DNA of 64,000 nt, from positions 2,435 to 66,434 of the forward strand of contig PIVU01000001.1 in assembly GCA_003354025.1 (NCBI GenBank). The letters are read 5' to 3'. The notes below the pieces were generated by a model, which was not told the DNA's origin, made no database searches, and saw only the letters and a program-made list of their open reading frames with translations. Numbering within the stretch: the stretch's first letter is position 1; every line of letters begins with the position of its first letter. Source of the stretch: Nitrospirota bacterium. GTDB lineage: Bacteria; Nitrospirota; Thermodesulfovibrionia; UBA6902. The translations under genes were made by a program, and so were the position numbers. Positions 8,182-48,513 of this stretch are shown here, piece after piece.

Positions 8182-9396
8182 ATGGTAAAAAAAGTAAAAA
8201 CAAATCAGTTAAGACCCGGGATGTTTATTCATGACATCAACTGCGGCTGGCTTGACCATCCGTTCTTCGGTAGAGCCATGGATGTAAATGATGATGAAAT
8301 GGTTGAGAAAATTGTTAACTTCGGAATTCGAGAAGTTTATATAGATACAGATATTGGGCTTGATGTAGACAGTGCGCCGACAAAGGAAGAGGCGGACAAG
8401 GCAATAATGGAAGAAATAAATAAGATCAATGAAATAAATTTTGATGACATTAAACCTGTTGCCGTAGGTAGAGAAATCATCATGGCGAAGAAAGTCAGAA
8501 AAGAAGCGATGAAGACAGTGCAGAATGTTATGAACAACATAAAAATGGGCACTCAAATCCATAAAGAAGAGGTAGAAGTTGTTGTTAATGACATAATTAT
8601 TTCAATGTTACGAAATCCCAATGCTTTGATGAGCATGGGGATGCTGAGAAAAACCGATGAATACCTGTATCAACATTCAATAAGTGTTTGCGCACTTATG
8701 GTCAGTTTTGGCAAGTTGCTGGGATTTGATTCGCAGCTGCTGAAAGAGATAGGTCTCGGGGCAATGCTTCATGATATAGGTACAATGCAGGTACCTCAGG
8801 AAATAATATGCAAGCAAAATGGCTTAACTGAAAGTGAATATGAGCAGGTAAAAAAGCACGTACTTTACGGCAGAAACATACTTGAGAAAACTGAAGGCGT
8901 CACTGATATGTCAATCATTACAGCGTATCAGCATCATGAGAGATTGGACGGAACCGGTTATCCAAAAGGAATAAAGGGAGATGAGATATCAAAAACCGGC
9001 AGAGCGATTGCTATTATTGATGTGTATGACGCATTGACCACAAAGAGATGCTTCAGGAATTTGATCCCGCCTGCTGAAGCAATAAAAATGATATTTGAAT
9101 GGTCTGAAACCAAATTTGACAGGGGAATGGTAAAAAAGTTTATAAAATGTATTGGTATCTACCCGGTCGGTTCGCTTGTTCGTCTTGAAAGCGGTCTGCT
9201 TGCTGTAGTGTTTGATCACTCTACGGATGACATCCTCAGGCCGTTAGTGCGTGTTGTTTATGACACAAAAAAAGAAAGAATTGTAATGCCTTATGTCTTG
9301 GATCTTTCAAAGCCTTCTGGTAAAGGCGGGGCGGACAGGATTGTCAGCTATGAACCTCCGGAGCAATGGAGTATTCAACCGGATGCATATCTGTAG
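8182..9396 (+). CDS. HD-GYP domain c-di-GMP phosphodiesterase with an N-terminal DUF3391-like region.
   Basis: HDIG...HHERLDGTGYP HD-GYP signature. The N-terminus, LRPGMFIHDINCGWLDHPF, is typical of DUF3391. Confidence 0.75.
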   Translation: MVKKVKTNQLRPGMFIHDINCGWLDHPFFGRAMDVNDDEMVEKIVNFGIREVYIDTDIGLDVDSAPTKEEADKAIMEEINKINEINFDDIKPVAVGREIIMAKKVRKEAMKTVQNVMNNIKMGTQIHKEEVEVVVNDIIISMLRNPNALMSMGMLRKTDEYLYQHSISVCALMVSFGKLLGFDSQLLKEIGLGAMLHDIGTMQVPQEIICKQNGLTESEYEQVKKHVLYGRNILEKTEGVTDMSIITAYQHHERLDGTGYPKGIKGDEISKTGRAIAIIDVYDALTTKRCFRNLIPPAEAIKMIFEWSETKFDRGMVKKFIKCIGIYPVGSLVRLESGLLAVVFDHSTDDILRPLVRVVYDTKKERIVMPYVLDLSKPSGKGGADRIVSYEPPEQWSIQPDAYL

Positions 9397-14632: not shown

Positions 14633-16213
14633 ATGTCAAAATCAAAATTATCCATTTTAGTAGCAGACAACAGCCGTCCCAGCTTCGAGCTCATCAAAAC
14701 TACCTTAATCAGCGACGAAAACATGAAGTATGAAATTGATGCTGCTGCGTCAAGCAAGGATGCCCTTGAAAAGGCATCTGGAAATAATATAGATCTTGTG
14801 CTGGTTAATCAGAAGCGTTCCGGCACTGACGGTATTAAAATGCTTCAGGATATCATTAAGAAGAAACTTGGTGTTCCCGTCATAATGATAGTAGCTGAAG
14901 GTGAAGAGAAACTTGGCGTCAAGGCCATGGACAAGGGCGCATATGATTTCCTTACGAAAGACGAAGTCAAGACTGTTGCGTTGGGACGTGCTATACGCAG
15001 AGTGATGCAGAGACGCAAACTTGAGAGTGATATCAAGGAGTCTCTTAATAAACTGGAAAAACTTGCTATTAAGGACGGACTTACAGGACTTTACAATCAA
15101 CACCATTTTAAGGAAGTCATTTCAAGGGAGTACAAGAAAGCAAAGAGATATATGCAGTCATTGTCCTGTATTATGCTGGACCTTGACCACTTTAAATTAG
15201 TTAATGATACTCATGGCCATCAATTTGGGGATGAAGTACTTATACAGGCCGCAGAAATCCTCAATAGGCTTGTCAGGGACACTGACTTTGTGGCCCGTTA
15301 CGGCGGTGAAGAATTTTTTATCGTGCTTCCTAATACAAACCTGAAAGGCGCTCATATTCTTGCTGAAAGAATACGATCTGCTTTTGCAGACCACATCTTT
15401 AAGAAAGAAGGTATTTCTGAAAAGGTTACGGTAAGTGTTGGTGTGTCTGCCAGGTCTGACGAAAACGTTGTTAGTGAGAATGAACTGATTGCAAATGCTG
15501 ACAAGTCGCTGTACCGTGCAAAGTGGCGGGGAAGAAATAATGTGTGCACATATGAAGAATCAGAAATTGAAGCAACTCCGGGTTTAAGAGAAGAAGTGAA
15601 AAAAATAGAGAATTTTGATGACAAACTGAAGGACCTTAATGACAATATAAAAGACAATTGTATTGAATCGGCGCATGATATACTTCGTGAAATTGAAAAG
15701 GGATGGGACTATATAAACGAGCACTCCATCAGGGTAAGCCGTTATGCAGAGCAGCTGACTAAGGCATTAATGTTGTCAGACGATGAGATAAAAATAGTCA
15801 GGCGGGCTGCCTTGCTTCATGATATAGGGATGGTAGGAGTCAGCTCAAAAATTCTGAAAAAGAAGACAAAGCTGTCAGGTGATGAATATGAAGTGGTCAA
15901 AAAGCACTCTAATATTGGTGTAAAGATAATCAAGAAAACCAACCTTTTTGATAATGAACTTCCCTTAATACTCTATCATCATGAACGCTATGACGGGAAT
16001 GGATATCCCCATCAGCTAAAGGGGGATACGATACCATATGGGGCACGCATACTTTCTGTTGTTGAAGCCTATGATGCCATGATGAATAATACGATTTACC
16101 GTAAAGCTTATTCCAGCAAGGAAGCTGTTGCTGAACTCAGGGAGTGTTCAGGCTCCCAGTTTGATCCGAAAGTAGTAGATGCTTTTATAAAAGTCATTAA
16201 CAAGTCCAACTGA
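14633..16213 (+). CDS. Three-domain c-di-GMP enzyme: a degenerate REC domain, a GGDEF domain with an intact GGEEF motif, and an HD-GYP domain.
   Basis: REC fold with DN and an Asn at the phospho-acceptor position (LVLVNQ). GGDEF domain with the RDTD I-site and RYGGEEF. C-terminal HD...HHERYDGNGYP. Confidence 0.75.
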   Translation: MSKSKLSILVADNSRPSFELIKTTLISDENMKYEIDAAASSKDALEKASGNNIDLVLVNQKRSGTDGIKMLQDIIKKKLGVPVIMIVAEGEEKLGVKAMDKGAYDFLTKDEVKTVALGRAIRRVMQRRKLESDIKESLNKLEKLAIKDGLTGLYNQHHFKEVISREYKKAKRYMQSLSCIMLDLDHFKLVNDTHGHQFGDEVLIQAAEILNRLVRDTDFVARYGGEEFFIVLPNTNLKGAHILAERIRSAFADHIFKKEGISEKVTVSVGVSARSDENVVSENELIANADKSLYRAKWRGRNNVCTYEESEIEATPGLREEVKKIENFDDKLKDLNDNIKDNCIESAHDILREIEKGWDYINEHSIRVSRYAEQLTKALMLSDDEIKIVRRAALLHDIGMVGVSSKILKKKTKLSGDEYEVVKKHSNIGVKIIKKTNLFDNELPLILYHHERYDGNGYPHQLKGDTIPYGARILSVVEAYDAMMNNTIYRKAYSSKEAVAELRECSGSQFDPKVVDAFIKVINKSN

Positions 16214-18167: not shown

Positions 18168-18554
18168 ATGGAAATGATTAAAAAAATATTAATAGTTGAT
18201 GACTCGCCGATTGCAAGAAAAATGCTCAAGAGCTGCCTGCCTAAGGACAGGGGGTTTGAATTTCATGAGGCCGGAAACGGTAAAGAGGGTTTTGATAAAT
18301 ATGTTGAATTACGACCTGATGTGACATTTATGGATCTTACCATGCCTGTAATGACAGGTTATGAGGCTATTGACGAAATCATTGGCCATGATAAAAGTGC
18401 TCTTATAATAGTTGTGACCGCTGATATTCAAATGAAATCAATAAAGAAAGTATTGGACTCAGGCGCTTATATGGTCTTGAAAAAGCCGCTTAAAAGAGAG
18501 GAAATTAGTTCCGCGCTTGTAAAAGCAGAGGACACATTGCAAAAAGCTAATTAA
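18168..18554 (+). CDS. Single-domain CheY-like response regulator.
   Basis: LIVDDS...FMDLTMPVMTG...VVTAD...KKP, a canonical receiver domain. Confidence 0.8.
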   Translation: MEMIKKILIVDDSPIARKMLKSCLPKDRGFEFHEAGNGKEGFDKYVELRPDVTFMDLTMPVMTGYEAIDEIIGHDKSALIIVVTADIQMKSIKKVLDSGAYMVLKKPLKREEISSALVKAEDTLQKAN

Positions 18555-19198
18555 TGACTATGCAAAAAGAACAGATATTAACTAGTGAAGAAATTGAGAT
18601 CTTACAGGAGCTGATGAATATTGCCTTTGGTCAGTCAGCAGCTGACCTTGCCGAGGTTATTGATACGCAGGTAGTGTTAAGTGTTCCCTTTATCAAACTT
18701 ATGCAGGTAGCAGATCTTCCAGAGTATTTCAAAAACCATGTAAAAGATTATAAGAACATTAATCTGGTAGAACAGAAATTCTGGGGCAGGTTTAAAGGTG
18801 ATGCTCTGCTTGTATTTTCTTCAGGAGCTGGGAAAGAGCTGATTACACTATTGAAGCACGATGAGGAAGTCAGCCTTGAATCCGACCCGGTGGACATCCT
18901 TGAGCGGGAAACACTAATGGAAGTAGGAAATATATTAATAGGGGCCTGTGTTGGAAAAATAGCTGAATTATTACAAGACGTTGTTACCTATACTCCTCCG
19001 ATGGTGGCCGTTGAAAAGGGATATCAGGAGGCAATCTCCGGGGGCCGTTATGATCCTGAATGTACAGCGATAGTGCTTAAAACGGATTTCTGTTTTGAGG
19101 AGGGGGACGTCACCGGTTTTCTCTTTCTGGTTACGAGCAATGATTCAGGCACATGGTTGCGGGAAGCTCTCAAGTTGTTCATCGAACAGTACGAATAA
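18554..19198 (+). CDS. CheC/CheX-family CheY-P phosphatase.
   Basis: Two copies of the CheC signature ExxN-x22-P (QELMN...x22...P and MEVGN...x22...P). The start overlaps the upstream cheY-like stop by one base. Confidence 0.65.
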   Translation: MTMQKEQILTSEEIEILQELMNIAFGQSAADLAEVIDTQVVLSVPFIKLMQVADLPEYFKNHVKDYKNINLVEQKFWGRFKGDALLVFSSGAGKELITLLKHDEEVSLESDPVDILERETLMEVGNILIGACVGKIAELLQDVVTYTPPMVAVEKGYQEAISGGRYDPECTAIVLKTDFCFEEGDVTGFLFLVTSNDSGTWLREALKLFIEQYE

Positions 19199-19205
19199 GT
19201 GACGA

Positions 19206-20105
19206 ATGATACTAAATCAGTTTTTTGATGCGCTCAATTTAGGGGTTTTAATACTCGATAGAGATCTTAAGGTCTATAAGTGGAACCGCTGGATGGAGAT
19301 TCACTCCGGTATATCTGCCGCTAAAATTCATAACACACCTATTTTTGAAGTCTTTCCCGGACTTAACACTCCGAAGTTTAACCGAAGCTGTAAATCTGTT
19401 TTTAAATTCGGCAATCTCTGTTTTTTTTCACAGAAGCTGCATCATTATCTTTTCCCGTTTAAATCGACTGCATACTCCGGACATGAATTTGAATTTATGC
19501 AGCAGAGTTGTGCGATGGGACCTCTGAGGAATGATAACAATGAGGTTGAATATCTTTACATTTATATCCAGGATGTAACGGAAGTTGCAGTATATGAACA
19601 GAAGCTTGTTGAACTGAATATGAAGGACGGGCTTACTGGAGTATATAACAGGCGTTTCCTGGAGAAGAAACTGAAAGAAGAGGTTGAGAGACACAGGAGG
19701 TATACAGGCGATTTCAGCGTAGTATTATTTGATATAGACCATTTCAAGAGAGTAAATGACGACTACGGCCATCAATGCGGTGATTTTATCCTGAAATCGG
19801 TAAGTTCAAGAATAGATTCCATTATCAGAAACGTAGATTACCTTGCCCGTTACGGCGGTGAAGAGTTTTGCTGCCTTCTTCCTCAAACTCCCCTTAAATT
19901 TGCTGCAAAAGTTGCTGAGAGGTTTCGCGTGGTAATTATGGATCAGGAGCATAATTACGACAATAAGATTATCAACGTTAGGATAAGTCTTGGGGTTTCA
20001 GCTTTACAAAGTGACATTACTACTGCCGATGAAATGATAAAAAGGGCAGACGAAGCACTGTACAGGGCAAAGGATGGGGGACGCAACAGAGTTGAAACTA
20101 TATAG
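19206..20105 (+). CDS. PAS-GGDEF diguanylate cyclase.
   Basis: N-terminal PAS-like fold (GVLILDRDLKVYKWNRWMEIHSG...YIQDVTE). GGDEF domain with RYGGEEF. Confidence 0.75.
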   Translation: MILNQFFDALNLGVLILDRDLKVYKWNRWMEIHSGISAAKIHNTPIFEVFPGLNTPKFNRSCKSVFKFGNLCFFSQKLHHYLFPFKSTAYSGHEFEFMQQSCAMGPLRNDNNEVEYLYIYIQDVTEVAVYEQKLVELNMKDGLTGVYNRRFLEKKLKEEVERHRRYTGDFSVVLFDIDHFKRVNDDYGHQCGDFILKSVSSRIDSIIRNVDYLARYGGEEFCCLLPQTPLKFAAKVAERFRVVIMDQEHNYDNKIINVRISLGVSALQSDITTADEMIKRADEALYRAKDGGRNRVETI

Positions 20106-37773: not shown

Positions 37774-37793
37774 AAAAAAAAAGGCTCAGAGCC
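37774..37793 (-). terminator. Possible weak intrinsic terminator for the two-CW gene, read on the minus strand.
   Basis: Minus-strand GGCTCTGAGCC followed by T9. Confidence 0.3.
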
Positions 37794-37832
37794 TTGCTCG
37801 AACCTTCGTTGAATTGGAATGTCTTTTCAGTC

Positions 37833-38144
37833 TTATTTTGCTGATGCGTGGTAGATTTGCCCGGGTTTCAGGAGGACAAAGTTGTCGGCCCCTTCTTCGG
37901 TTTTGATCTGCTTGAATACTTCACAGGACATGCATGATACTGACTTCTGGGCAAAATCACCCTGTACCTTGTCGCCGCAAAAAGTGCCTGCTATGGCCCA
38001 GCATATACGTCCCGCATTGTTGCCGCCGTTGATTCCGTCACATGAAGAATCGGTGGTGGCCGGGCATATACCTAGTTCGGAATTTTTATTCCCGCCGGGT
38101 TCTCTTCCGCACTTTTTAATGTCCCAGCAATTAACGTTTGACAT
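37833..38144 (-). CDS. Small cysteine-rich 'two-CW' domain protein.
   Basis: Two CW-containing cysteine motifs: NCWDIKKCG and CWAIAGTFCG...CMSCEVF. The RBS, AAGGAGG, sits 6 nt upstream of the ATG. Confidence 0.6.
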   Translation of the reverse strand: MSNVNCWDIKKCGREPGGNKNSELGICPATTDSSCDGINGGNNAGRICWAIAGTFCGDKVQGDFAQKSVSCMSCEVFKQIKTEEGADNFVLLKPGQIYHASAK

Positions 38145-38286: not shown

Positions 38287-39336
38287 TTAAACTGCATTAA
38301 TTAATTCACCTGCTATTTCATTAAGGGGGACAATTTTGTCGGCAAGGCCTGCTTCTACTACTGAACGGGGCATGCCGTAGACAACACATGTTTCTTCACT
38401 TTCGGCGATTGTTTTACCCCCCTTGTTCTTGATTTCCTTCATCCCAAGTTCACCATCGTTCCCAAGACCCGTCAGAACTACTCCCAGCACGTGTCCTGAA
38501 AAATTTGCTACAGCATTTTGCATGAGAAGATCAATGCAGGGTTTGTATATATACTTGCCTGTGTCCTTAATGAGTGATATAGAGGATTCAGTCAGTTTCT
38601 TTCTTTCTATCCCCATATGTCCTCCACCCGGAGCAATATACACAACACCTTTTTTAATCGTTTCACCATGTTCTGCTTCTTTTACGTAAATTTCACTCAG
38701 CTGATTTAAACGCTCGGCAAAAGGACCTGTAAAGGCCGCCGGCATGTGCTGGGCAATGATTATTGGCACAGGGTAATTTTTCGGCAGGCAGCTAACAATG
38801 CTTTGTAGTGCTTTGGGTCCTCCTGTAGAAGAACCAATGGCCACTATACCGACCCTTCTGGTTGACGTGTATTGCTGGGTTTTTTCCGGCATGTCCAGAG
38901 GTTTTGACGCAGGTTCAGGAGTGGCTTTTCTTCTCCTTACCCGGAGTTTACCAATTTTCTTGATCTTGTCTATGAGAGTATTTTTTATTTTGACAATGTT
39001 AATCGAAAGATCGGAAAGGTTCTTTGGAATGAAGTCCACAGCGCCGAGATCAAGCGCTTCAAGCGTAACATGGGCCCCCTCATTTGTCAGTGAGCTGACC
39101 ATTAATACGGGTACAGGTGTTTTTTCCATTATCTGCTTCAGGGCTTCAATACCGTTCATGCGGGGCATTTCAACATCAAGAGTCACAATGTCCGGTTTTA
39201 ATGAAGCGACTTTCTCAACCGCTTCCATACCATCACGTGCCATGCCTATAACATCAATTTCCGGGTCCGATGAAATCATGCTGGAGAGAGTGTTTCTCAT
39301 AAACGCTGAGTCATCAACAATTAGTACTTTAACCAT
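38287..39336 (-). CDS. cheB: Chemotaxis protein-glutamate methylesterase CheB.
   Basis: REC domain plus the methylesterase domain (GSSTGGPKAL, AQHMP). Confidence 0.9.
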   Translation of the reverse strand: MVKVLIVDDSAFMRNTLSSMISSDPEIDVIGMARDGMEAVEKVASLKPDIVTLDVEMPRMNGIEALKQIMEKTPVPVLMVSSLTNEGAHVTLEALDLGAVDFIPKNLSDLSINIVKIKNTLIDKIKKIGKLRVRRRKATPEPASKPLDMPEKTQQYTSTRRVGIVAIGSSTGGPKALQSIVSCLPKNYPVPIIIAQHMPAAFTGPFAERLNQLSEIYVKEAEHGETIKKGVVYIAPGGGHMGIERKKLTESSISLIKDTGKYIYKPCIDLLMQNAVANFSGHVLGVVLTGLGNDGELGMKEIKNKGGKTIAESEETCVVYGMPRSVVEAGLADKIVPLNEIAGELINAV

Positions 39337-39378: not shown

Positions 39379-39849
39379 CTAGGTGTCCAGTCCTGGAGAA
39401 TCACCAAGAAGATTGTCAAGGTCAATGAGTATAATAAGTCTGTTTTCAAGTTTTGCTATGCCTTTAATAAACTGGCTTTGAAGCTCTGCTGACATTGGCG
39501 GAGCAGGCTCTACACTATCAGCCGGGATTCGTAACACTTCAGAAACTGAGTCAACAATAAGGCCGTTAGTGATTCCCTGAATTTCCATGATAATTATCCT
39601 GGAAGTATCATCGGTAGGTCTGTCTTCAAAGTGAAATTTCTTCCTTAAATTAATGACGGGAATAACCTTGCCTCTGAGATTTATAACTCCCTCTACAAAA
39701 TCTGGAGAGTTGGGTACCTGGGTTATTTCTGTTATTCTATTGATTTCCTGCACATTTAGAATATTTACGGCATACTCTTCATTGCCTAGTGTAAATGTGA
39801 CAAGTTGAAGGACTTCCGTCCCTGCTGCTGTTTGTTCTGTTGTTTCCAT
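39379..39849 (-). CDS. cheW: Chemotaxis coupling protein CheW.
   Basis: 156-aa CheW-like domain (VLQLVTFTLGNEEYAVNILNVQEI). Confidence 0.85.
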   Translation of the reverse strand: METTEQTAAGTEVLQLVTFTLGNEEYAVNILNVQEINRITEITQVPNSPDFVEGVINLRGKVIPVINLRKKFHFEDRPTDDTSRIIIMEIQGITNGLIVDSVSEVLRIPADSVEPAPPMSAELQSQFIKGIAKLENRLIILIDLDNLLGDSPGLDT

Positions 39850-39874: not shown

Positions 39875-41113
39875 CTAAAATCCAAAATCATTTAATAAAG
39901 ACTCAACATCCGATTGTGATACTTTATCTGCCGGACCGTTTGGTGCTTTTTCTGTTTTGTATTCATCGTACGTAACTGTAGTCGGTTTTACCTCGACATC
40001 AGCGTGGTCGTTTAAACCGAATTTAGTTATAAGTGTTAAGAGTTCTCCTTCAACACTACTGACAAGATTGATGACCTTCTTTATTGTCTGACCGGTGATG
40101 TCCTGAAACTGCTGTGCAGTCAGGATTTCTGTCATGTTTTCATCAAGAGCCCCTTTAAAGGCTTGAAGGTAAGCCACATCTTCATCATGTCCCTTAATAT
40201 TATTGAGATGTGTGGTGAAGTCCTCTTCTTCTTCGAAATACCGCTCAACTATCCCCATAGTTTTATTTGCGGCATCTTCTGTTTTAGAAATTACAAACTG
40301 GAGCTTGTCAACGGCATTAGGCACATCGTTTTCTGTAAGTCTTTGCAGCCCGCTATCAATAGCGCCCTTAAAGTCCTCAAGAGAATCATGCAGTTTCCTG
40401 GTGATTTTACCAACGTCCTTAAATATATCGCTGTCAGTTGCCTTAGTCAGTTTGCCAACGATTTCCTCCACTTTCTTATATTCATTATTTGAAAGGGCGT
40501 CCATGAACTCAAGGATTAAATCATATATAGCGTGCTTGGGATCATTCTCTTCAAGTTTGTCTGCGAGGTAGTCCTTGGCATTATGCAATTCCTTAATGGT
40601 CACTTTGCCGCCCATAGTCTCGACTTGCCGGGTAACTTCCACGTTTGAACCGTCTGCTGACTCTTTGATATCTACTATGGCGTCTTCCAGAAGACTCAGG
40701 TCTGCAATGGGGAGGAGTTTTTTAATATCTAAAAGAACTATTAGTTTGTTTTTTAACTTTGCGACACCTGCAATGCTGTCTTTATTATTGTTGACGAAAC
40801 TTTCGGGAGGCTCAATCTCCGACTGATCAACATTGACAACTCCTGTTATTCCATCAACTACTATACCGAATGTTATCTGGCCGGTTGCCAGAACTATGAC
40901 TGTGTTGCCGGCGTCCTCGCCATTGTCCGAATGTAACAGGTACTTGAGATTGACTACCGGTATGATAGTGTCTCTCAGGTTTGTAATACCTCTTACATAA
41001 GAGGGGAGATTCGGCAGGGCGGTTATTGACGGCATTGTAATGATCTCGCGTACATTTAGTATAGGTATCATGTATTCGCTCGAATTGATATTAAAACCAA
41101 TGTATTGTTGCAA
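39875..41113 (-). CDS. Fusion protein: an N-terminal CheW-like domain joined to a C-terminal CheZ-like phosphatase.
   Basis: Residues 1-140 have the CheW fold ([41 protein letters not shown]). The C-terminal half carries [36 protein letters not shown] and the catalytic [14 protein letters not shown]. These match CheZ [36 protein letters not shown] and AQDFQDLTGQVIKR. Confidence 0.65.
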   Translation of the reverse strand: [412 protein letters not shown]

Positions 41114-41315
41114 TGATACCTCCTTATATAGTGGCAGCGCTGCCGCTGTGTTCCTTATTTACTTTATTACAAATAATGGTTTTATGAAGCAAGGCGTTAA
41201 AAACATTAAGAATGTTAGGAAAACTGATTTTCATTGTTTATGTCCCCTTGTTAATGAAAATGATTTAATTGAAATAACTTCGGTCGTTAGATTATTGATT
41301 AAGTGAATTATCATC

Positions 41316-43313
41316 TTACACCTTTGATGTGATTTCCAGTAGATTACGTGACATCCCATTAACGTCTAAAATAAATACAACCTTTCCGTCTCCGGTAATA
41401 GTTGCTCCCAGAACATAGGACGCTGTTGAATCAACACCATCAAGCTGTTTGATAACAACTTCCTCCTGTCCCAGCAACTTATCTACGGCGATACAGAAAC
41501 GTTTCTCTCCCATGGAAATGACAACGATATACTTATGCTCAGAATCTTCATGCGCGCTGCCATTACCATTGCCGTTACCGTTGCCTGTCCCGAGAAGGGT
41601 GTTCAGCTCAAAGAGAGGACAGACTTTATCACGGATGACTATGACGTTTTGACCGGTAATGTTATCAATTTGATCGTTGGAGACCTTAAGGGTTTCCTCA
41701 ATTGGTGAAAGAGGTATAGCATATTTTGCGCCCGATACCTCAACCATTAGTGATTGAATTATTGCGAGAGTCAAGGGGATGCATATTCTGAATGTCGTAC
41801 CTACATCCTTTTCCGTTAATACTTCAACGTATCCGTTAAGTAGGGAAATGTTGGTTTTAACTACATCCATACCAACGCCTCTTCCACTAAGCTCAGTTGC
41901 GACTTCCTTGGTCGAAAAACCTGGCATGAATATTATGTCCGTGGCTGCTTCATCGGTCATTTTATCGACTTCTTCTTCGGTCAATACTCCTTTTTCAACA
42001 GCCTTTCTCTTTAATTTGTTGACATCCATTCCCTTGCCGTCATCGATGATTTCAATGACAACCTGGTTGCCTTTCTGGTATATGTTTATTTCGACCTTGC
42101 CCTTTTGCGGCTTACCTTTGGCAATCCTTTCCTCAGTTGATTCAAGTCCATGGTCTATTGAATTTCTCAATATATGTGTAAGAGGATCACCGATATGCTC
42201 TATGACCGTCTTGTCAACTTCAGTGCCTTCACCGGTAATCTCCAGTGCGACGTCTTTATTAACAGTAGCTGACATGTCCCTGACGAATCTTGGGAATTTT
42301 CCAAGCACTTTTTTGATAGGCTGCATACGGATTTTCATAACTGCAAGCTGCATGTCCGATGTTACCCTGTCAAGGAAGGAAACTGTTTCCATAAGAGTTT
42401 CCGTCATGGGGTCGTGAGAGTACTTCTGATCAAAATAATTTGAAATATTTAAAAGTCTGTTTCTTACAAGAACTACTTCACCTGCAAGGTCCATGACTTT
42501 GTCGATTCTCTCTACGTCAACTCTAAGGTTTTGGGCCACTTCTTTTGGTTTGGCAGCTGTATCTTTAGCCGGCTTTGGCGCTTCAGCAGTTTTTTGCACT
42601 ACAGGTTTGGATGGCGGCGCAGGATGTTTAACAGCCTGTTTTTCTGTTACGGGCTCGGCTGGCGGAGCAGGTTCTTCTGCTGATTTTGCAGTGCTTTCGG
42701 CAGGCTCACTATTTATTGATTCTTCTCTGGACAGGTCAGCGACTTTCATTGCTTCTTCGATCTGTCTTTCTATGTCATCCATTACGGGTTGAGTTTCTTC
42801 AGCAGGAGGAGATTCAATGCTCAGCTCCGGTTCTGCTACCGGTTCCGCAACTTCTACCTTTTCCTCCACCGGCTGTGTTACTTGCACATCTGCATCAGAG
42901 GTGGACTGTTCTCCTGAGGACTGACCTGTTGCAACATTTAAAGCTTCGTTTAATTCATTTACCAAAGGTGAGACATCTTCTTCTATTCCGTCTTTTGCAC
43001 TTAAGTGGCCAAGGAGAATTCTAAGCATATCGATAGACTTGAGAATGACGTCCATTAAAGGAGTTGATACGGAAATTTCGCCGTCTCTCAGTCTTTTCAT
43101 TATGTTTTCGGATGAATGTGCAACATCAACTACTGGCTGAAAACCGAGGAATCCTGCAGCACCTTTAATAGTGTGCATTGATCTGAATATTTCATTCAGC
43201 ATCTCATTGTCTTCACCCTTTTGTTCAAGTTCCACAAACAGAGGCTCAATTTTGTCGAGAGACTCTTCAGCTTCTGTTATAAACTCCGCTATTATTTCAT
43301 CCATTTCATCCAT
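41316..43313 (-). CDS. cheA: Chemotaxis histidine kinase CheA.
   Basis: Hpt domain (HTIKGAAGFLG), dimerisation and HATPase domains, and a C-terminal CheW-like domain. The linker contains a (GN)5 repeat. Confidence 0.9.
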   Translation of the reverse strand: MDEMDEIIAEFITEAEESLDKIEPLFVELEQKGEDNEMLNEIFRSMHTIKGAAGFLGFQPVVDVAHSSENIMKRLRDGEISVSTPLMDVILKSIDMLRILLGHLSAKDGIEEDVSPLVNELNEALNVATGQSSGEQSTSDADVQVTQPVEEKVEVAEPVAEPELSIESPPAEETQPVMDDIERQIEEAMKVADLSREESINSEPAESTAKSAEEPAPPAEPVTEKQAVKHPAPPSKPVVQKTAEAPKPAKDTAAKPKEVAQNLRVDVERIDKVMDLAGEVVLVRNRLLNISNYFDQKYSHDPMTETLMETVSFLDRVTSDMQLAVMKIRMQPIKKVLGKFPRFVRDMSATVNKDVALEITGEGTEVDKTVIEHIGDPLTHILRNSIDHGLESTEERIAKGKPQKGKVEINIYQKGNQVVIEIIDDGKGMDVNKLKRKAVEKGVLTEEEVDKMTDEAATDIIFMPGFSTKEVATELSGRGVGMDVVKTNISLLNGYVEVLTEKDVGTTFRICIPLTLAIIQSLMVEVSGAKYAIPLSPIEETLKVSNDQIDNITGQNVIVIRDKVCPLFELNTLLGTGNGNGNGNGSAHEDSEHKYIVVISMGEKRFCIAVDKLLGQEEVVIKQLDGVDSTASYVLGATITGDGKVVFILDVNGMSRNLLEITSKV

Positions 43314-43352: not shown

Positions 43353-43742
43353 TTACGCATTTATTTTTTCAAAAATCTTGTCCATTTTTTCTTTTAATAT
43401 TTCGCCGGTAAATGGTTTCACCACGTAGTTGTTTACGCCGGCCTGAATAGCCGTGATGACTTTTTCTTTTTCAGCTTCTGCCGTGACCATTAGTATAGGC
43501 AGCTCCTTAAGGTCCGGGTCGCTCCTGACTTTCTTGAGCAACTCAAGTCCGTCCATATTGGGCATGTTCCAATCACTTATCATGAAACCGTACTCAGTGC
43601 CCTGAAGCTTGCTGAAAGCCTGCTCTCCGTCCTCTGCTTCGTCGATATGCTCGTAGCCGAGCTGTCTAAGAAGGTTTTTGACAATTCTTCTCATGGTAGA
43701 AAAATCATCAACCACCAGGATTTTCATTTTAAAATCAGACAT
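43353..43742 (-). CDS. cheY: Chemotaxis response regulator CheY.
   Basis: [14 protein letters not shown]...[11 protein letters not shown]...VTAE...VVKPF. The start is set at MSDFK, which sits 8 nt after AAGGAGG. The ORF track begins 7 codons earlier, at 43763. Confidence 0.9.
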
Positions 43743-43746
43743 AGTA

Positions 43747-44127
43747 TCATCCTCCTTTGGCAAACATCTGCTTAATTATTGCTTTTATATTTTCTGCAAT
43801 GGCATCACCGGTAACCGGTTTAACAACATATCCGTTAGCACCGTTGCTGAATGCCTTTTGTCTTTCTTCTTCGTCATTTTCGGTCGTAACCATTAGAATA
43901 GGTAAATCCTCCCAGGTGGGATCGGATCTCAGGGTCTTAATAAGTTCCATTCCGTCCATATATGGCATGTTCAGATCAGTCATGACAAGGTTGACTACAT
44001 CAGTTCCCAGTTTTTCCAGCGCATCCAGTCCGTTTTCAGCGAATACCACGGAGTATCCCCTAGTTTTCAAATAGTGGCCGAGAAGCTTCCTTGTTGTCTG
44101 GCAATCGTCTACTATGAGTATTTTCAT
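43747..44127 (-). CDS. Second CheY-like response regulator.
   Basis: MKILIVDD...[11 protein letters not shown]...VTTEN...VVKP. Confidence 0.85.
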
Positions 44128-44194: not shown

Positions 44195-45019
44195 TTACAC
44201 CTTCTGATACATGATTACTTTATTTGTAACACTCGGTCTGAATGCCCTTGTAACATTGTGAAGGCTCTCCGATGAACCGATAAACAGGTAGCCTCCTGGA
44301 TTTAAACAGTCATATAGATTAGACACGACTTTCTGCTTGGCCTTTGCATCGAAATAAATGAGAACGTTACGGCAAAAGATTACGTCCATTCCGCGCAATG
44401 ATTTAATTTTATTGTTATCTATAAGATTGATCTTGTTGAATTTAACAGTGTTCTTTACTGATGCATTTAACGAATAAGACTGTTTTTCAGGTGAGAAGTA
44501 TTTTCTTAGATAATTCTCGGGCATGTTCCTGATGGAGTATGAATTGTATATTGCTTTTTTAGCAGAGGACAGTACTCCTTCACTCAGGTCGGATGCATGT
44601 ATTTCGAACTTGTTGGCTGTAATGTTCTTTTCAGTTAGCATGATTGATAAAGTGTAGGGCTCTTCGCCTGTAGAGCATGCTGATGACCAGAGCTTTAGTT
44701 TTTGACCTGCCTTCTTTGTTGACATGATTTTTGGTATTACCAGGTCCGCGAAAACATCAAGCTGCTGGGGCTCTCTGAAAAAATATGTTTCATTTGTAGT
44801 TACCGCATCAAAGAGTCTCGTCAGTTCTGTGCCGTTTGAACTGAACTTTATTAACTTAAGGTATTCTTCAAAACTCTTTAACTGCTTTTCCTGAAGTATG
44901 CGGGAAAGGCGGTTTTCTATGAGGTACTTCTTTGTATCGGCAATATAAATGCCGCTTTGATCATATATATAGTCCCTCAGGTCTTTAAAAGTGGAGTCAA
45001 CAAGGGGGATGCTCAGCAT
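44195..45019 (-). CDS. cheR: Chemotaxis protein methyltransferase CheR.
   Basis: YFFREPQQLDVF...LWSSACSTGEEPYTLSIML, the SAM-dependent MTase motifs of CheR. Confidence 0.9.
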   Translation of the reverse strand: MLSIPLVDSTFKDLRDYIYDQSGIYIADTKKYLIENRLSRILQEKQLKSFEEYLKLIKFSSNGTELTRLFDAVTTNETYFFREPQQLDVFADLVIPKIMSTKKAGQKLKLWSSACSTGEEPYTLSIMLTEKNITANKFEIHASDLSEGVLSSAKKAIYNSYSIRNMPENYLRKYFSPEKQSYSLNASVKNTVKFNKINLIDNNKIKSLRGMDVIFCRNVLIYFDAKAKQKVVSNLYDCLNPGGYLFIGSSESLHNVTRAFRPSVTNKVIMYQKV

Positions 45020-46437
45020 GTTACCTCCGAATTGAAACCAGATGTATATCGTGAAGCGGATTGCTGTATGTTTTCATTGAATTCACTTGCTCTGGAAAAG
45101 AATAATGTTGAATTTATATTCATAAGCGAATTTATAAACTCATCAATCACATCATTGTACTGCTCTTTGTGCAGCATTTTCATAAGAGGTTCAAATGCAT
45201 CTGCTTCGCTGATTTTGCCAAGGGCTATCACAGCATTTTTACGGACATGGCTGTCCTCGTCGGAAATTGCATCTATCAGACACTCCTTTGCTTCACTGCT
45301 GTCTATTTCTCCCAGGGATTTAATTGATGACCTTCGAATGTCCCTGTATTCGCTGTTAAGAAGCAATATGAGGTCGGCGACGGCATCTTTGCACTGTAAG
45401 TTCCCGATGATTTCCGTTGCAATGACTTTCCCCCTGTATTTAAGAGAATCATTATTGAGAAGTTCTATCAGTGACTGATTACAGCCGAAGCTTTGAATTG
45501 CTTCCTTAATAACATACAGCCTGTCTTCATTATCAGGCTCGGACATGTCAAGAGATCCTGCCAGGTCAAGCAGGTCACGAATTGCAGTAGTTTCATTAAG
45601 GAGCACAAGGCCCTTTATTGCTATTAACCTGTCGTCCCAGTCATCTTCGGACAGCATTTTAATCAATATTTCTGAAATGCTTTTTTCAGACGGGATTGTG
45701 CCAATCTGTACCAGACTTTTAATGATTGATATTGTTTCGAATTCATTGGCTTCAGGCATGTGGTCGACTAAGGGCTGTGCTGCTTTTGGTGAGCAAATGT
45801 TGCCTAATGCTTCAATAGCGGCAAAGCGGGTTGTTTCAGAGGTGCTATTGAGAAGCTGAACAATAGTATCTACAGCGCTTTCATCTTTCAACTCAGTTAG
45901 CGACTCCAGTGCTGAAAAGCACACCCATTCTTCATCTTCGAGCGCTTTAATAAGCTGGGGGACAGCCTTTTTATAATGAAGTCTTCCCAGGGTCTTAGAG
46001 GCGGCGGCGCGTACGTTGGCGTTTGAATCACCTGTTAGCATTTCTACGAGCTTTTCTGGATATGTGCAGTACTCAATATCATGTATGAGGTCCAGTGCGA
46101 ATTTTCTAACATCATCATCTCTGTCGTTAAGAAGAACATAGAGAAGCGGGATTGTGGTCCTGCCCATTTCCTTCAGAATGATTAAGGCGGTATTGCGAAG
46201 AAAGGAGTTTTCCCGTAAAAGCGGCAGCACCATATATGCCGTACACTCTCCCTTGATTTCCATAAGAGAACGCATTGCCGCATCCTGTACACCGTAGTTA
46301 TCATCTCTCAAGGCTTTAATGAGAGGGTACACCGCACGTTCGTCACCTTCTGCAAGACCTTCAGCGGCAGCACGTCTGACTGAAGCATCTTCATCTTTGA
46401 TGTTTCTCAGGAATTTGTTTAGTTTTGCAGTGTGCAT
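45013..46437 (-). CDS. HEAT / PBS-lyase repeat protein encoded at the head of the che operon.
   Basis: Repeated units of the form VRRAAAEGLAEGDERAVYPLIKALRDDNYGVQDAAMRSL. Overlaps the cheR start. Confidence 0.7.
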   Translation of the reverse strand: MHTAKLNKFLRNIKDEDASVRRAAAEGLAEGDERAVYPLIKALRDDNYGVQDAAMRSLMEIKGECTAYMVLPLLRENSFLRNTALIILKEMGRTTIPLLYVLLNDRDDDVRKFALDLIHDIEYCTYPEKLVEMLTGDSNANVRAAASKTLGRLHYKKAVPQLIKALEDEEWVCFSALESLTELKDESAVDTIVQLLNSTSETTRFAAIEALGNICSPKAAQPLVDHMPEANEFETISIIKSLVQIGTIPSEKSISEILIKMLSEDDWDDRLIAIKGLVLLNETTAIRDLLDLAGSLDMSEPDNEDRLYVIKEAIQSFGCNQSLIELLNNDSLKYRGKVIATEIIGNLQCKDAVADLILLLNSEYRDIRRSSIKSLGEIDSSEAKECLIDAISDEDSHVRKNAVIALGKISEADAFEPLMKMLHKEQYNDVIDEFINSLMNINSTLFFSRASEFNENIQQSASRYTSGFNSEVTC

Positions 46438-46592: not shown

Positions 46593-47018
46593 TTAAACAA
46601 TCTTCTGCTCCAGTACTGATTGAGATTTTACATCGTCGGCCTCAGTCTTCACCATGTTTCTGCCCGAGCGCTTTGCAAGGTATAATGCGCGGTCTGCCCG
46701 CTCGAAAACGGTGGTGCAGTCATCTCTTTTTTTAAACGCGCTAACACCGACACTGATTGTCAGCGGGATTTGAGTACCCTGATATGAAAAATTGGCATTG
46801 TCAATATAAGAGCGTATCCCTTCTCCAGCCTTCAGTGCACCTTCCAGTTCCCTGTTGCGGGTTGAGAGAGAATCAATATATTTTTTAATAACTTCCAGCG
46901 GAGAGTCCAGCCACTCCTGCGACAGTTCTTTAAGTATTGACAGTACCTCATCAGCAACTGCATATACTTTCTCCTCAAATTCCCCCTGAGTATCAGATAA
47001 ATTAATCTCTTCAGGCAT
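46593..47018 (-). pseudogene. Internally deleted paralogue of the downstream GGDEF gene. It keeps only the N-terminal helix and the C-terminal third of the GGDEF domain and has no GGEEF motif.
   Basis: EEKVYAVADEVLSILKELSQ and AGEGIRSYIDNANFSYQGTQIPLTISVGVSAF...ADRALYLAKRSGRNMVKTE align with the N- and C-terminal ends of the 451-aa neighbour. The coiled coil and catalytic core are missing. The ORF is nonetheless intact. Confidence 0.5.
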
Positions 47019-47157: not shown

Positions 47158-48513
47158 TTATGAAGTAAGAGATTTCTGAGTGATGTCATCATCTTCTTTT
47201 ATCACATCTTTTTCTGTTTTTACGGTGTTTCTTCCTGAATTTTTTGCCAGATAAAGTGCATTGTCCGCTCTTTCCATGACCGATTCAACTGTGTCGTCTT
47301 TTCTGAATACACTTATACCCACACTAATTTTGAGGGGGATATTTCGGTTTTTATAAGAAAACATTGCATTGTCTATATATGATCTGGCGCCGTCGCCTGC
47401 TTTTTCTGCATCCTTTAAAGATGTATGTGGAAGAATAATGGCGAACTCCTCTCCTCCGTATCTCGATATAAAATCATTTACCCTCAGTTTCTCTTTCAGG
47501 AGTGAAGCCAGTTTCTTAAGGGCAAGGTCTCCAACTTTATGTCCGAATGAATCATTGATTTTCTTAAAGAAATCAATATCGCAAAACATCAGTGATGCAG
47601 GCACATCATATCTCCGGAGATTAGCGAGAGTTTCTACTACTTTCTGATCGTATGCTTTCCTGTTATATAAACCTGTCAGCTGATCACGCAGCGATTGCAG
47701 TTCAATTTCCTCGGCCTTCTTTTTGATCTCCTTGGCCTCTTTTTTTATACCCGATATTCTTGAGCTCATCTGTTCAAGAGTTGTTTCCTGTTCCTTTAAA
47801 TGGATCATGTCCTGCTCTCTTTTTTGGTCTATGCCCTTATTAATATTCTCGATTTTGCCAAAGACCGCACTTTTGAGCTTTTTCAGATTGTCCGTTATCA
47901 TTCCTGGAGAAGAGTCAAAATCTTCTTTTATCATAGACATATTGATAGAAATGCTCTTTTCAAACTCTCTGTCCTGGTTAAATTTATTTTGATGAAAGGA
48001 TAGTTCAGTTGATACATGCTCCTCTGTTTCTTCCAGGTAGCTGATTGTCTGGCGCATAAATTCTTCCAGCTCCTTATTCTTCAGATAAAGGGCATCAAAG
48101 TATATCTTTATATACTTAAGGAGTGAATCCAGTCTGCTGGCCGTATTCTCGAATAAATTCTTGTCATGAATCTGCTTCTTAAGATCACTGATTTCTTCAG
48201 TTAACATATCAGGCGCCATGTCTGAAAACTTATCAAGGAAGTTAGATGTCATGTCCTTTAAGCGGCTTATTTCACTATGTGTCTCCTGCTTAATGTCGGG
48301 GTGGTCTGCATGAATAGGCGGAAGGGGCTCTATAAGCATTTTCTGGACAGTGCCTTTTACTACCAGTTGTTCTGCTATTGCTTTGGCATTCAGTTTTTTC
48401 TTGTTGTCTTTAGAGAGCTGTTTAAGAATATCGAGAACTTCATCTGCGATTACATATATTTTTTCCTGTAACTCTGAGGAGTTATCTTCTGGTTGTCCCG
48501 TGTCCTGTTCCAT
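47158..48513 (-). CDS. Diguanylate cyclase: a long N-terminal coiled coil followed by a GGDEF domain.
   Basis: LTGLYNRKAYD...RYGGEEFAIILP, plus the I-site RVND. Confidence 0.8.
   Translation of the reverse strand: MEQDTGQPEDNSSELQEKIYVIADEVLDILKQLSKDNKKKLNAKAIAEQLVVKGTVQKMLIEPLPPIHADHPDIKQETHSEISRLKDMTSNFLDKFSDMAPDMLTEEISDLKKQIHDKNLFENTASRLDSLLKYIKIYFDALYLKNKELEEFMRQTISYLEETEEHVSTELSFHQNKFNQDREFEKSISINMSMIKEDFDSSPGMITDNLKKLKSAVFGKIENINKGIDQKREQDMIHLKEQETTLEQMSSRISGIKKEAKEIKKKAEEIELQSLRDQLTGLYNRKAYDQKVVETLANLRRYDVPASLMFCDIDFFKKINDSFGHKVGDLALKKLASLLKEKLRVNDFISRYGGEEFAIILPHTSLKDAEKAGDGARSYIDNAMFSYKNRNIPLKISVGISVFRKDDTVESVMERADNALYLAKNSGRNTVKTEKDVIKEDDDITQKSLTS

Follow-up and report, generated by a model that had tools for sequence, protein, structure and literature searches.

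A CheW–CheZ fusion protein encoded in a chemotaxis operon of a Nitrospirota bacterium

We analyzed a 64,000-nucleotide stretch of contig PIVU01000001.1 (positions 2,435 to 66,434 of the forward strand, assembly GCA_003354025.1) from a Nitrospirota bacterium; this whole stretch is referred to as the window. Within a chemotaxis operon on its minus strand lies a gene that joins a CheW-like scaffold domain to a CheZ-like CheY-P phosphatase domain (Table 1). The product of this cheW-cheZ fusion gene is probably a CheZ dimer that its own CheW domains anchor in the chemoreceptor array, in place of the E. coli tether to CheA-short.

The fusion gene and its operon

Table 1. Features of the cheW-cheZ fusion gene, the che operon and the CheC-like gene (window coordinates; residue numbers refer to the fusion protein; AF2, AlphaFold2; pLDDT, predicted local distance difference test)
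Feature	Coordinates	Strand	Basis
cheW-cheZ fusion gene, 412 codons and stop, TTG start	39875..41113	-	Open reading frame list; sequence; Pfam CheW and CheZ; 100% identical database protein P0001
Shine-Dalgarno sequence AAGGAGG, 5 nt upstream of the TTG	41119..41125	-	Direct reading of the sequence
CheW-like domain, residues 3-134	40712..41107	-	Pfam PF01584; Foldseek CheW chains; conserved contact positions
Connector, residues 135-178, segment VEV-T-R-x-V-x-T-x-GGKV-x-V-K-E-L	40580..40711	-	Family alignments; AF2 strands
N-terminal helical region of the CheZ module, residues 179-228	40430..40579	-	AF2 helices 179-184, 192-208 and 212-224
CheZ helical hairpin, residues 229-364 (helices 229-305 and 310-364)	40022..40429	-	BLASTP to E. 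coli CheZ; AF2
AxxFQ-DxxxQ motif, A333-Q342, with catalytic D338 and Q342	40088..40117	-	E. coli CheZ alignment; family conservation
Variable linker, predicted disordered, residues 365-399	39917..40021	-	pLDDT <50 at 366-397; unconserved, gapped alignment stretch
C-terminal CheY-binding helix (putative), residues 400-412	39878..39916	-	Alignment with E. coli peptide QDQVDDLLDSLGF; AF2 helix 400-409
HEAT-repeat protein, 474 aa, head of the che block	45013..46437	-	Pfam HEAT_2, E 1.1e-57; syntenic in L001-L007
cheR	44195..45019	-	Pfam CheR and CheR_N
Second single-domain response regulator	43747..44127	-	Pfam Response_reg; CheY equivalog 101.5 bits, below cutoff
cheY, E. coli-type	43353..43763	-	NCBIfam CheY equivalog, 193.2 bits vs cutoff 189
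cheA (Hpt, dimerisation, HATPase_c, CheW-like P5)	41316..43313	-	Pfam; NCBIfam CheA
Stand-alone cheW	39379..39849	-	Pfam CheW, E 1.4e-41
cheB (REC and methylesterase)	38287..39336	-	Pfam
Two-CW domain protein, 103 aa, Cys-rich, last operon gene	37833..38144	-	NCBIfam NF045718, E 9e-31
Terminator-like hairpin followed by a T run, operon end	37781..37795	-	Sequence scan
CheC-like gene	18554..19198	+	Pfam CheC, E 3.7e-11; both E-x2-N-x22-P sites

The fusion is encoded by one unbroken minus-strand open reading frame (ORF) of 412 aa. The plus strand over the same interval is riddled with stops, and a gene there was rejected because its translation is broken by them. Pfam placed CheW (PF01584) on residues 3–134 (E 1.5e-33, 115.8 bits against a cutoff of 23.5) and also reported CheZ (PF04344; E 2.4e-35, 122.7 bits against a cutoff of 30.7), bearing out the proposal of the initial annotation that a single ORF joins the two domains. 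The TTG start codon (41113–41111), separated from its Shine-Dalgarno sequence by a 5-nt spacer, is well placed since the aligned homologues all share the N-terminus M-Q/E/D/R-Q-Y/F-I/V-G-F. The gap between the cheA stop and the fusion start measures 202 nt (41114–41315, minus strand), against approximately 25–30 nt in three related loci (L001–L003). Within it lie a 36-codon ORF (41234 to 41124), ending in a stop that overlaps the Shine-Dalgarno sequence of the fusion, and a palindrome, GGCAGCGCTGCC, near 41134–41149.

A protein search over 5.8 billion proteins returned 846 matches at E ≤1e-5, the best 120 of which were inspected. All 120 carry both the CheW and CheZ Pfam domains, at 58–100% identity and with lengths of 386–420 aa. 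An artefactual origin, with a frameshift, sequencing error or misassembly fusing separate cheW and cheZ genes, has a practically negligible probability. The few database relatives that are CheZ-only (242–328 aa) would fit such an origin, but the short entries start at points internal to the fusion (MSLLED and MDGITGV are examples) and lie on contigs of 1.4–4.6 kb. More than 110 independent full-length fusions of 394–420 aa were found, some of them on contigs of 2.69 and 3.17 Mb. Given these proteins, the continuous reading frame and the conserved junction region, a frameshift separating two genes, for which the initial annotation had allowed, was rejected.

Searching with the CheZ part alone recovered the same family. 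The CheZ-only entries in this search numbered seven, and the five that were read all start inside the fusion sequence; these short entries look like gene calls cut off at the front. Residue 139 is Met in the family consensus (DDMSLLED) and Leu in the window protein, and two database proteins of 274 aa, P0121 and P0122, start exactly at the residue 139 Met. These could be truncated gene calls, or could mark an internal start that frees CheZ.

As the initial annotation had it, the gene lies inside a chemotaxis operon, flanked by cheR, cheY, cheA, cheW and cheB. A single-protein scan of genome contigs gave eight close loci for comparison (L001–L008). The block HEAT-CheR-CheY-CheY-CheA-CheW/CheZ is kept in seven of them (L001–L007), all related Nitrospirota/Thermodesulfovibrionales loci at 47–65% protein identity, and synteny with cheA, cheY, cheR, cheW and cheB holds in the same seven. 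The fusion gene travels with cheA and cheY. In CP070788.1, the 2.69-Mb contig, the fusion gene directly follows and overlaps a gene for a methyl-accepting chemotaxis protein (MCP) of 441 aa, and is followed by cheW, cheB and a 103-aa gene. No MCP gene was found among the window ORFs scanned.

The two receiver genes in the block lie in tandem and overlap, and only the cheA-adjacent one passes the CheY equivalog cutoff. Its product is the most likely substrate of the CheZ domain; the second receiver may act as a phosphate sink or serve a second output. Pfam detected no P2 domain in the cheA product.

The two halves of the protein and the segment between them

Both halves were matched to E. coli proteins in a sequence search of the PDB, the N-terminal half to CheW (2ho9, E 5.6e-23) and the C-terminal half to CheZ (1kmi, E 3.6e-10). 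An AF2 monomer model was built from a 76-sequence alignment and compared to the PDB with Foldseek. This recovered the CheW chains 6s1k_C, 8c5v_E and 2ch4_W, all from structures of core signalling units, with E values of 2e-13 to 5e-11 and target-normalised TM scores of 0.78–0.85.

Contact positions in the CheW-like domain were mapped by HMMER alignment to E. coli CheW, using residue lists from a 2026 review of array interfaces (PMC13098124), and conservation was scored in the alignment of 76 homologues. The E. coli receptor contacts I33, V36, E38, I39, R62, V105 and V108 correspond to I18, V21, E23, I24, R47, I89 and V92 in the fusion, and the CheA contacts T46, N60 and P67 to T31, N45 and P52. 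Each of the ten mapped positions is either invariant or conserved in at least 90% of the family. Invariance holds for the counterparts of E. coli I33, E38, I39, G57, R62, G99, V105 and V108, and the V36 counterpart is kept in at least 90% of homologues. The CheW half accordingly looks functional, and would be expected to bind the P5 domain of CheA and the MCP tip and so to enter arrays.

Fusion residues 229–412 aligned by BLASTP with residues 16–214 of E. coli CheZ (E 1e-13), and every CheZ alignment block quoted in the initial annotation was reproduced. So was its assignment of the catalytic pair: E. coli D143 and Q147 align on D338, which is invariant, and Q342, which is conserved in at least 90% of the 76 homologues. 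An AxxFQ motif described for proteobacterial CheZ (PMC7750401) is found as A333-Q-Q-F-Q337, adjoining the catalytic Asp. At the C-terminus, the peptide that aligns with SQDQVDDLLDSLGF of E. coli CheZ has Q400, D402, V403, L407 and F412 invariant in the family. The predicted secondary structure fits the CheZ plan of two long helices, disorder at 366–397 and a terminal helix at 400–409; the hairpin helices (229–305 and 310–364) were modelled at pLDDT ~60–80 in a single chain. By these alignments the CheZ half appears to be complete.

The hairpin differs from that of E. coli CheZ near its tip. From the TEDAAN motif to the catalytic Asp there are 60 residues in the fusion versus 81 in E. coli CheZ, with BLASTP gaps in this interval, so the part of the hairpin that includes its tip is ~21 residues shorter. 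The E. coli tip contacts CheA-short through F97 and W98 (PMC7750401). The turn predicted by AF2 for the fusion is N-I-K-G-H (305–309), with the aromatic pair absent, and the E. coli-type site for CheA-short is evidently missing from the protein.

The E. coli CheZ hairpin supplies half of the four-helix bundle of the dimer. If the fusion dimerises likewise, as the E. coli CheZ structure leads us to infer, each particle would carry two CheW domains, and the protein could serve mainly in array architecture, as a bivalent CheW that links core units to one another or occupies CheW-only rings and, like multi-CheW proteins, gives the lattice its form, with phosphatase activity secondary. Multi-domain CheW variants are indeed known in arrays, among them the triple-CheW proteins of F9 systems (PMC9321776) and the CheW.II/III architectures (Vass et al. 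2022). We regard such a primary role as highly unlikely, because D338/Q342, AxxFQ and the C-terminal peptide for CheY binding vary little or not at all in the family, which argues that phosphatase function is under selection.

Residues 135–228, between the CheW-like domain and the hairpin, have no counterpart in E. coli CheZ. The later part, residues ~163–228, aligns with N-terminal regions of stand-alone CheZ proteins of 250–270 aa (the match begins at ~163–200), and by this alignment would be part of a long form of CheZ. Within the connector the segment VEVTREV-x-TIGGKVTVKEL is conserved, and AF2 placed three beta strands here (146–151, 157–166 and 169–178) with low confidence (pLDDT 46–57).

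Conservation of residues 146–178 is unlike that of a free linker, and it raises the alternative of a receptor-controlled phosphatase, in which the CheW domain relays receptor state to CheZ and the array switches between making and destroying CheY-P in the manner of a bifunctional sensor kinase. Equivalents of R62 and I33, whose contact distance varies with signalling state in E. coli, are conserved in the fusion, and in one genome the fusion gene overlaps at its start with an MCP gene. We consider this unlikely. The CheZ active site lies ~160–200 residues from the CheW domain and CheY would be caught via a long disordered linker, as fits a simple tether, and conservation of the connector is equally explained by folding or dimerisation. 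More doubtful again is the specific form in which the CheW–CheZ dimer is an integral baseplate subunit whose phosphatase is set by receptor state via the connector. Were receptor gating true, the array would act as a kinase/phosphatase switch and reciprocally control how much CheY-P is made and destroyed, whereas CheZ of E. coli is constitutive.

Distribution of the fusion and genomic surroundings

In an exhaustive search, 1312 CheZ-like proteins were collected as representatives at 50% identity. Between 16 and 18 of the best 150 have an N-terminal CheW domain, and these CheW-bearing representatives reach down to ~35% identity in the CheZ part. A rough neighbour-joining distance tree of 144 CheZ domains, built without support values, put all 16 fusions in one clade of 25 leaves, together with fragments and a few genuine stand-alone CheZ proteins, which suggests a single fusion event. 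Retention of both domains in the 120 inspected homologues and in distant representatives within one clade indicates that the CheW–CheZ fusion is under long-term selection. Source names of the carriers are Nitrospirae/Nitrospirota, Nitrospiraceae, Thermodesulfovibrio and Thermodesulfovibrionales, with one 'Deferribacteres' and one metagenome-assembled genome of Thermodesulfobacteriota. The organisms carrying the fusion here are almost all uncultured.

Among the best 150 CheZ representatives, a further 22 (P0154–P0276) are 342–700 aa long and bear N-terminal extensions, none with a detected CheW domain. The N-terminus is HATPase_c-like in P0250 and FKBP_C-like in P0162; for the other 20, Pfam reported only CheZ at E ≤0.001. 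It seems that CheZ bears unexplained N-terminal modules more widely.

The che operon is embedded in a large flagellar cluster of the opposite orientation. On one side are fliF, fliG, fliH, fliI, fliJ, fliK, flgD and flgE, and on the other fliL, fliM, fliN, fliP, fliR, flhB, flhA and the rod and P-ring genes. The flhA side also has an SRP54-type GTPase, a ParA/MinD-type ATPase and a sigma-70-family sigma factor, which from their position we read as flhF, flhG and fliA. A scan for promoters and terminators gave nothing beyond shuffled expectation except the hairpin after the operon. The gene for the two-CW protein, which may be a redox or metal sensor, follows cheB in L001 and L002 (81–82% identity), and a 103-aa gene occupies the same place in L009.

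The initial annotation had also pointed to a CheC-family phosphatase and hence to two classes of CheY-P phosphatase in this organism. The family assignment was confirmed by Pfam, with both sites present. A combination of CheZ with a CheC/CheX-type phosphatase is common, however: most Vibrio species carry CheX and CheZ (PMC12887009), and F3 systems of Campylobacterota have CheZ and a CheC/CheX-type phosphatase (PMC9321776). The gene also lies ~21 kb away from the che operon, with a REC gene on one side and a PAS-GGDEF gene on the other (cluster 18168–20105, plus strand). Given this distance and these neighbours it may not serve the che pathway, and its setting suggests a phosphatase for a receiver linked to cyclic di-GMP rather than for the main chemotaxis CheY. 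Genes of cyclic di-GMP-type signalling are unusually dense around the flagellar and che cluster (8182–9396, 14633–16213, 19206–20105, 46593–47018 and 47158–48513), and comprise REC-GGDEF-HD, PAS-GGDEF, a GGDEF protein, a GGDEF fragment and an HD_5-domain protein.

Probable tethering in the array and relation to known systems

In the tethered arrangement that we favour, the CheW domain would dock in the array baseplate and touch receptor tips and CheA P5 like an ordinary CheW. A connector of ~45 residues would lead from there to the CheZ module, whose helical hairpin would pair with that of a second subunit to form a four-helix bundle carrying D338/Q342, as in the E. coli CheZ structure. The C-terminal helix, on its flexible linker, would capture CheY-P for dephosphorylation by D338/Q342, with the E. 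coli-type CheY, whose gene immediately precedes cheA, as the presumed substrate. A CheY-P phosphatase would thereby be placed covalently where CheA makes CheY-P. As CheZ is a dimer, two CheW domains would be present per phosphatase and may bridge two CheW sites of the lattice. Tethering in the array is supported indirectly by the conservation of most CheW contact positions, and by a hairpin 21 residues shorter in the region where the CheA-short-binding tip of E. coli CheZ lies.

Several observations weigh against this reading. Since a neighbouring gene encodes a canonical CheW, the CheW domain of the fusion is not needed as an adaptor and could have another partner. At residue 48 (~40970–40972, minus strand), equivalent to the E. 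coli CheA contact G63, Gly is found in at least 90% of the family but Asp in the window protein. E. coli D107 is replaced by an invariant Gly, A49 by an invariant Pro and T51 by Leu. Neither half reached the cutoff of its NCBIfam equivalog, with 88.5 against 260 for CheW and 77.7 bits against 257 for CheZ (NF008368); the CheZ half is related to enteric CheZ only distantly and is not its equivalog. The AF2 model was of moderate quality (mean pLDDT 66, predicted TM score 0.35), as expected when one chain of an elongated dimer is modelled. Structure prediction of the 412-aa product, proposed in the initial annotation as a check, gave a divided result: Foldseek against the PDB recovered the CheW half only and did not find a CheZ fold.

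The separate CheW and the substituted contacts raise a further alternative, in which the CheW-like domain directs CheZ away from the membrane array, for instance to a cluster of cytoplasmic receptors, to soluble CheA or to the flagellar pole. In its favour, the stand-alone CheW shares by tblastn only 33–38% identity with the CheW domains of fusion homologues in L001–L008, and CP070788.1 has a short MCP beside its fusion gene. Against it, the core positions for receptor binding are conserved, the gene is invariably accompanied by cheA, cheY and cheR in L001–L007, and the data here point to no alternative partner. We judge a target outside the membrane array to be very unlikely indeed, and retain tethering in the array as the preferred reading.

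With E. coli CheZ, functionally its nearest analogue, the fusion shares the phosphatase family, the catalytic Asp/Gln pair, the C-terminal CheY-binding peptide and a presumed siting beside the kinase. The two differ in the tether, which in E. coli is the non-covalent attachment of the hairpin tip (F97/W98) to CheA-short (PMC7750401) and in the fusion would be its own covalent CheW domain. Apart from its shorter hairpin, the fusion has ~90 extra residues ahead of the E. coli-like core.

In architecture the nearest analogues are CheV and the CheA-CheC/CheX fusions of Leptospirae. The CheW-like domain of CheV docks a second phosphoryl-handling activity, as that of the fusion would, and likewise coexists with a stand-alone CheW. 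CheV, however, carries a receiver, whereas the fusion carries CheZ and no Response_reg domain was detected by Pfam in its 412 aa. CheV is also monomeric, and the CheZ of the fusion should dimerise. In the F1 systems of Leptospirae, CheA-CheC/CheX fusions likewise place a CheY-P phosphatase covalently on a core array component, and a dual kinase/phosphatase complex has been suggested (bioRxiv 10.1101/2023.09.19.558490). There the phosphatase is of another family (CheC/CheX fold) and the carrier is CheA, rather than CheZ on CheW. Helicobacter pylori CheZ(HP)-ChePep and Azorhizobium CheZ are, like the fusion, non-enteric and without the CheA-short site (PMC7750401). They depend on ChePep and on N-terminal helices, respectively, and both are polar independently of CheA and the array, in contrast to the recognisable CheW domain of the fusion.

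The initial annotation treated this architecture as apparently undescribed, but it already stands in database annotations. CheW-like domains fused to CheZ receive a one-line listing among rare Pfam architectures by Vass, Branscum, Bourret and Foster (Vass et al. 2022), and JGI labels some members 'chemotaxis signal transduction protein/CheY-phosphate phosphatase CheZ'. The window protein is a member of that catalogued 'CheW, CheZ' architecture and shows no structural difference from it; the listing comes without analysis of distribution, motifs or function. Our literature search found no paper that analyses or tests a CheW–CheZ fusion, and an earlier mention in older comparative chemotaxis papers is possible. 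The CheZ fusions found were only those to fluorescent proteins, and among the results listed for Nitrospirota, Thermodesulfovibrio or Magnetobacterium no paper mentioned CheZ. The fusion is an uncharacterised form of a known system; it has already been catalogued, and its homologues are numerous in records labelled Nitrospirota. Its components are textbook ones and its value is that of a test system rather than a discovery.

The position of the phosphatase relative to the kinase shapes the CheY-P gradient and the speed of the response. Co-localisation of CheZ with the kinase reportedly sharpens responses and evens out CheY-P across the cell (PMC7750401). E. coli, Helicobacter and Azorhizobium each place CheZ by a different non-covalent partner. 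The fusion raises the question of how a dimeric, bivalent CheW would fit in the hexagonal lattice. As a natural 'Rosetta stone' case, a CheW–CheZ fusion would point to selection for CheZ at the array, and it may offer a system in which the contribution of this co-localisation can be tested.

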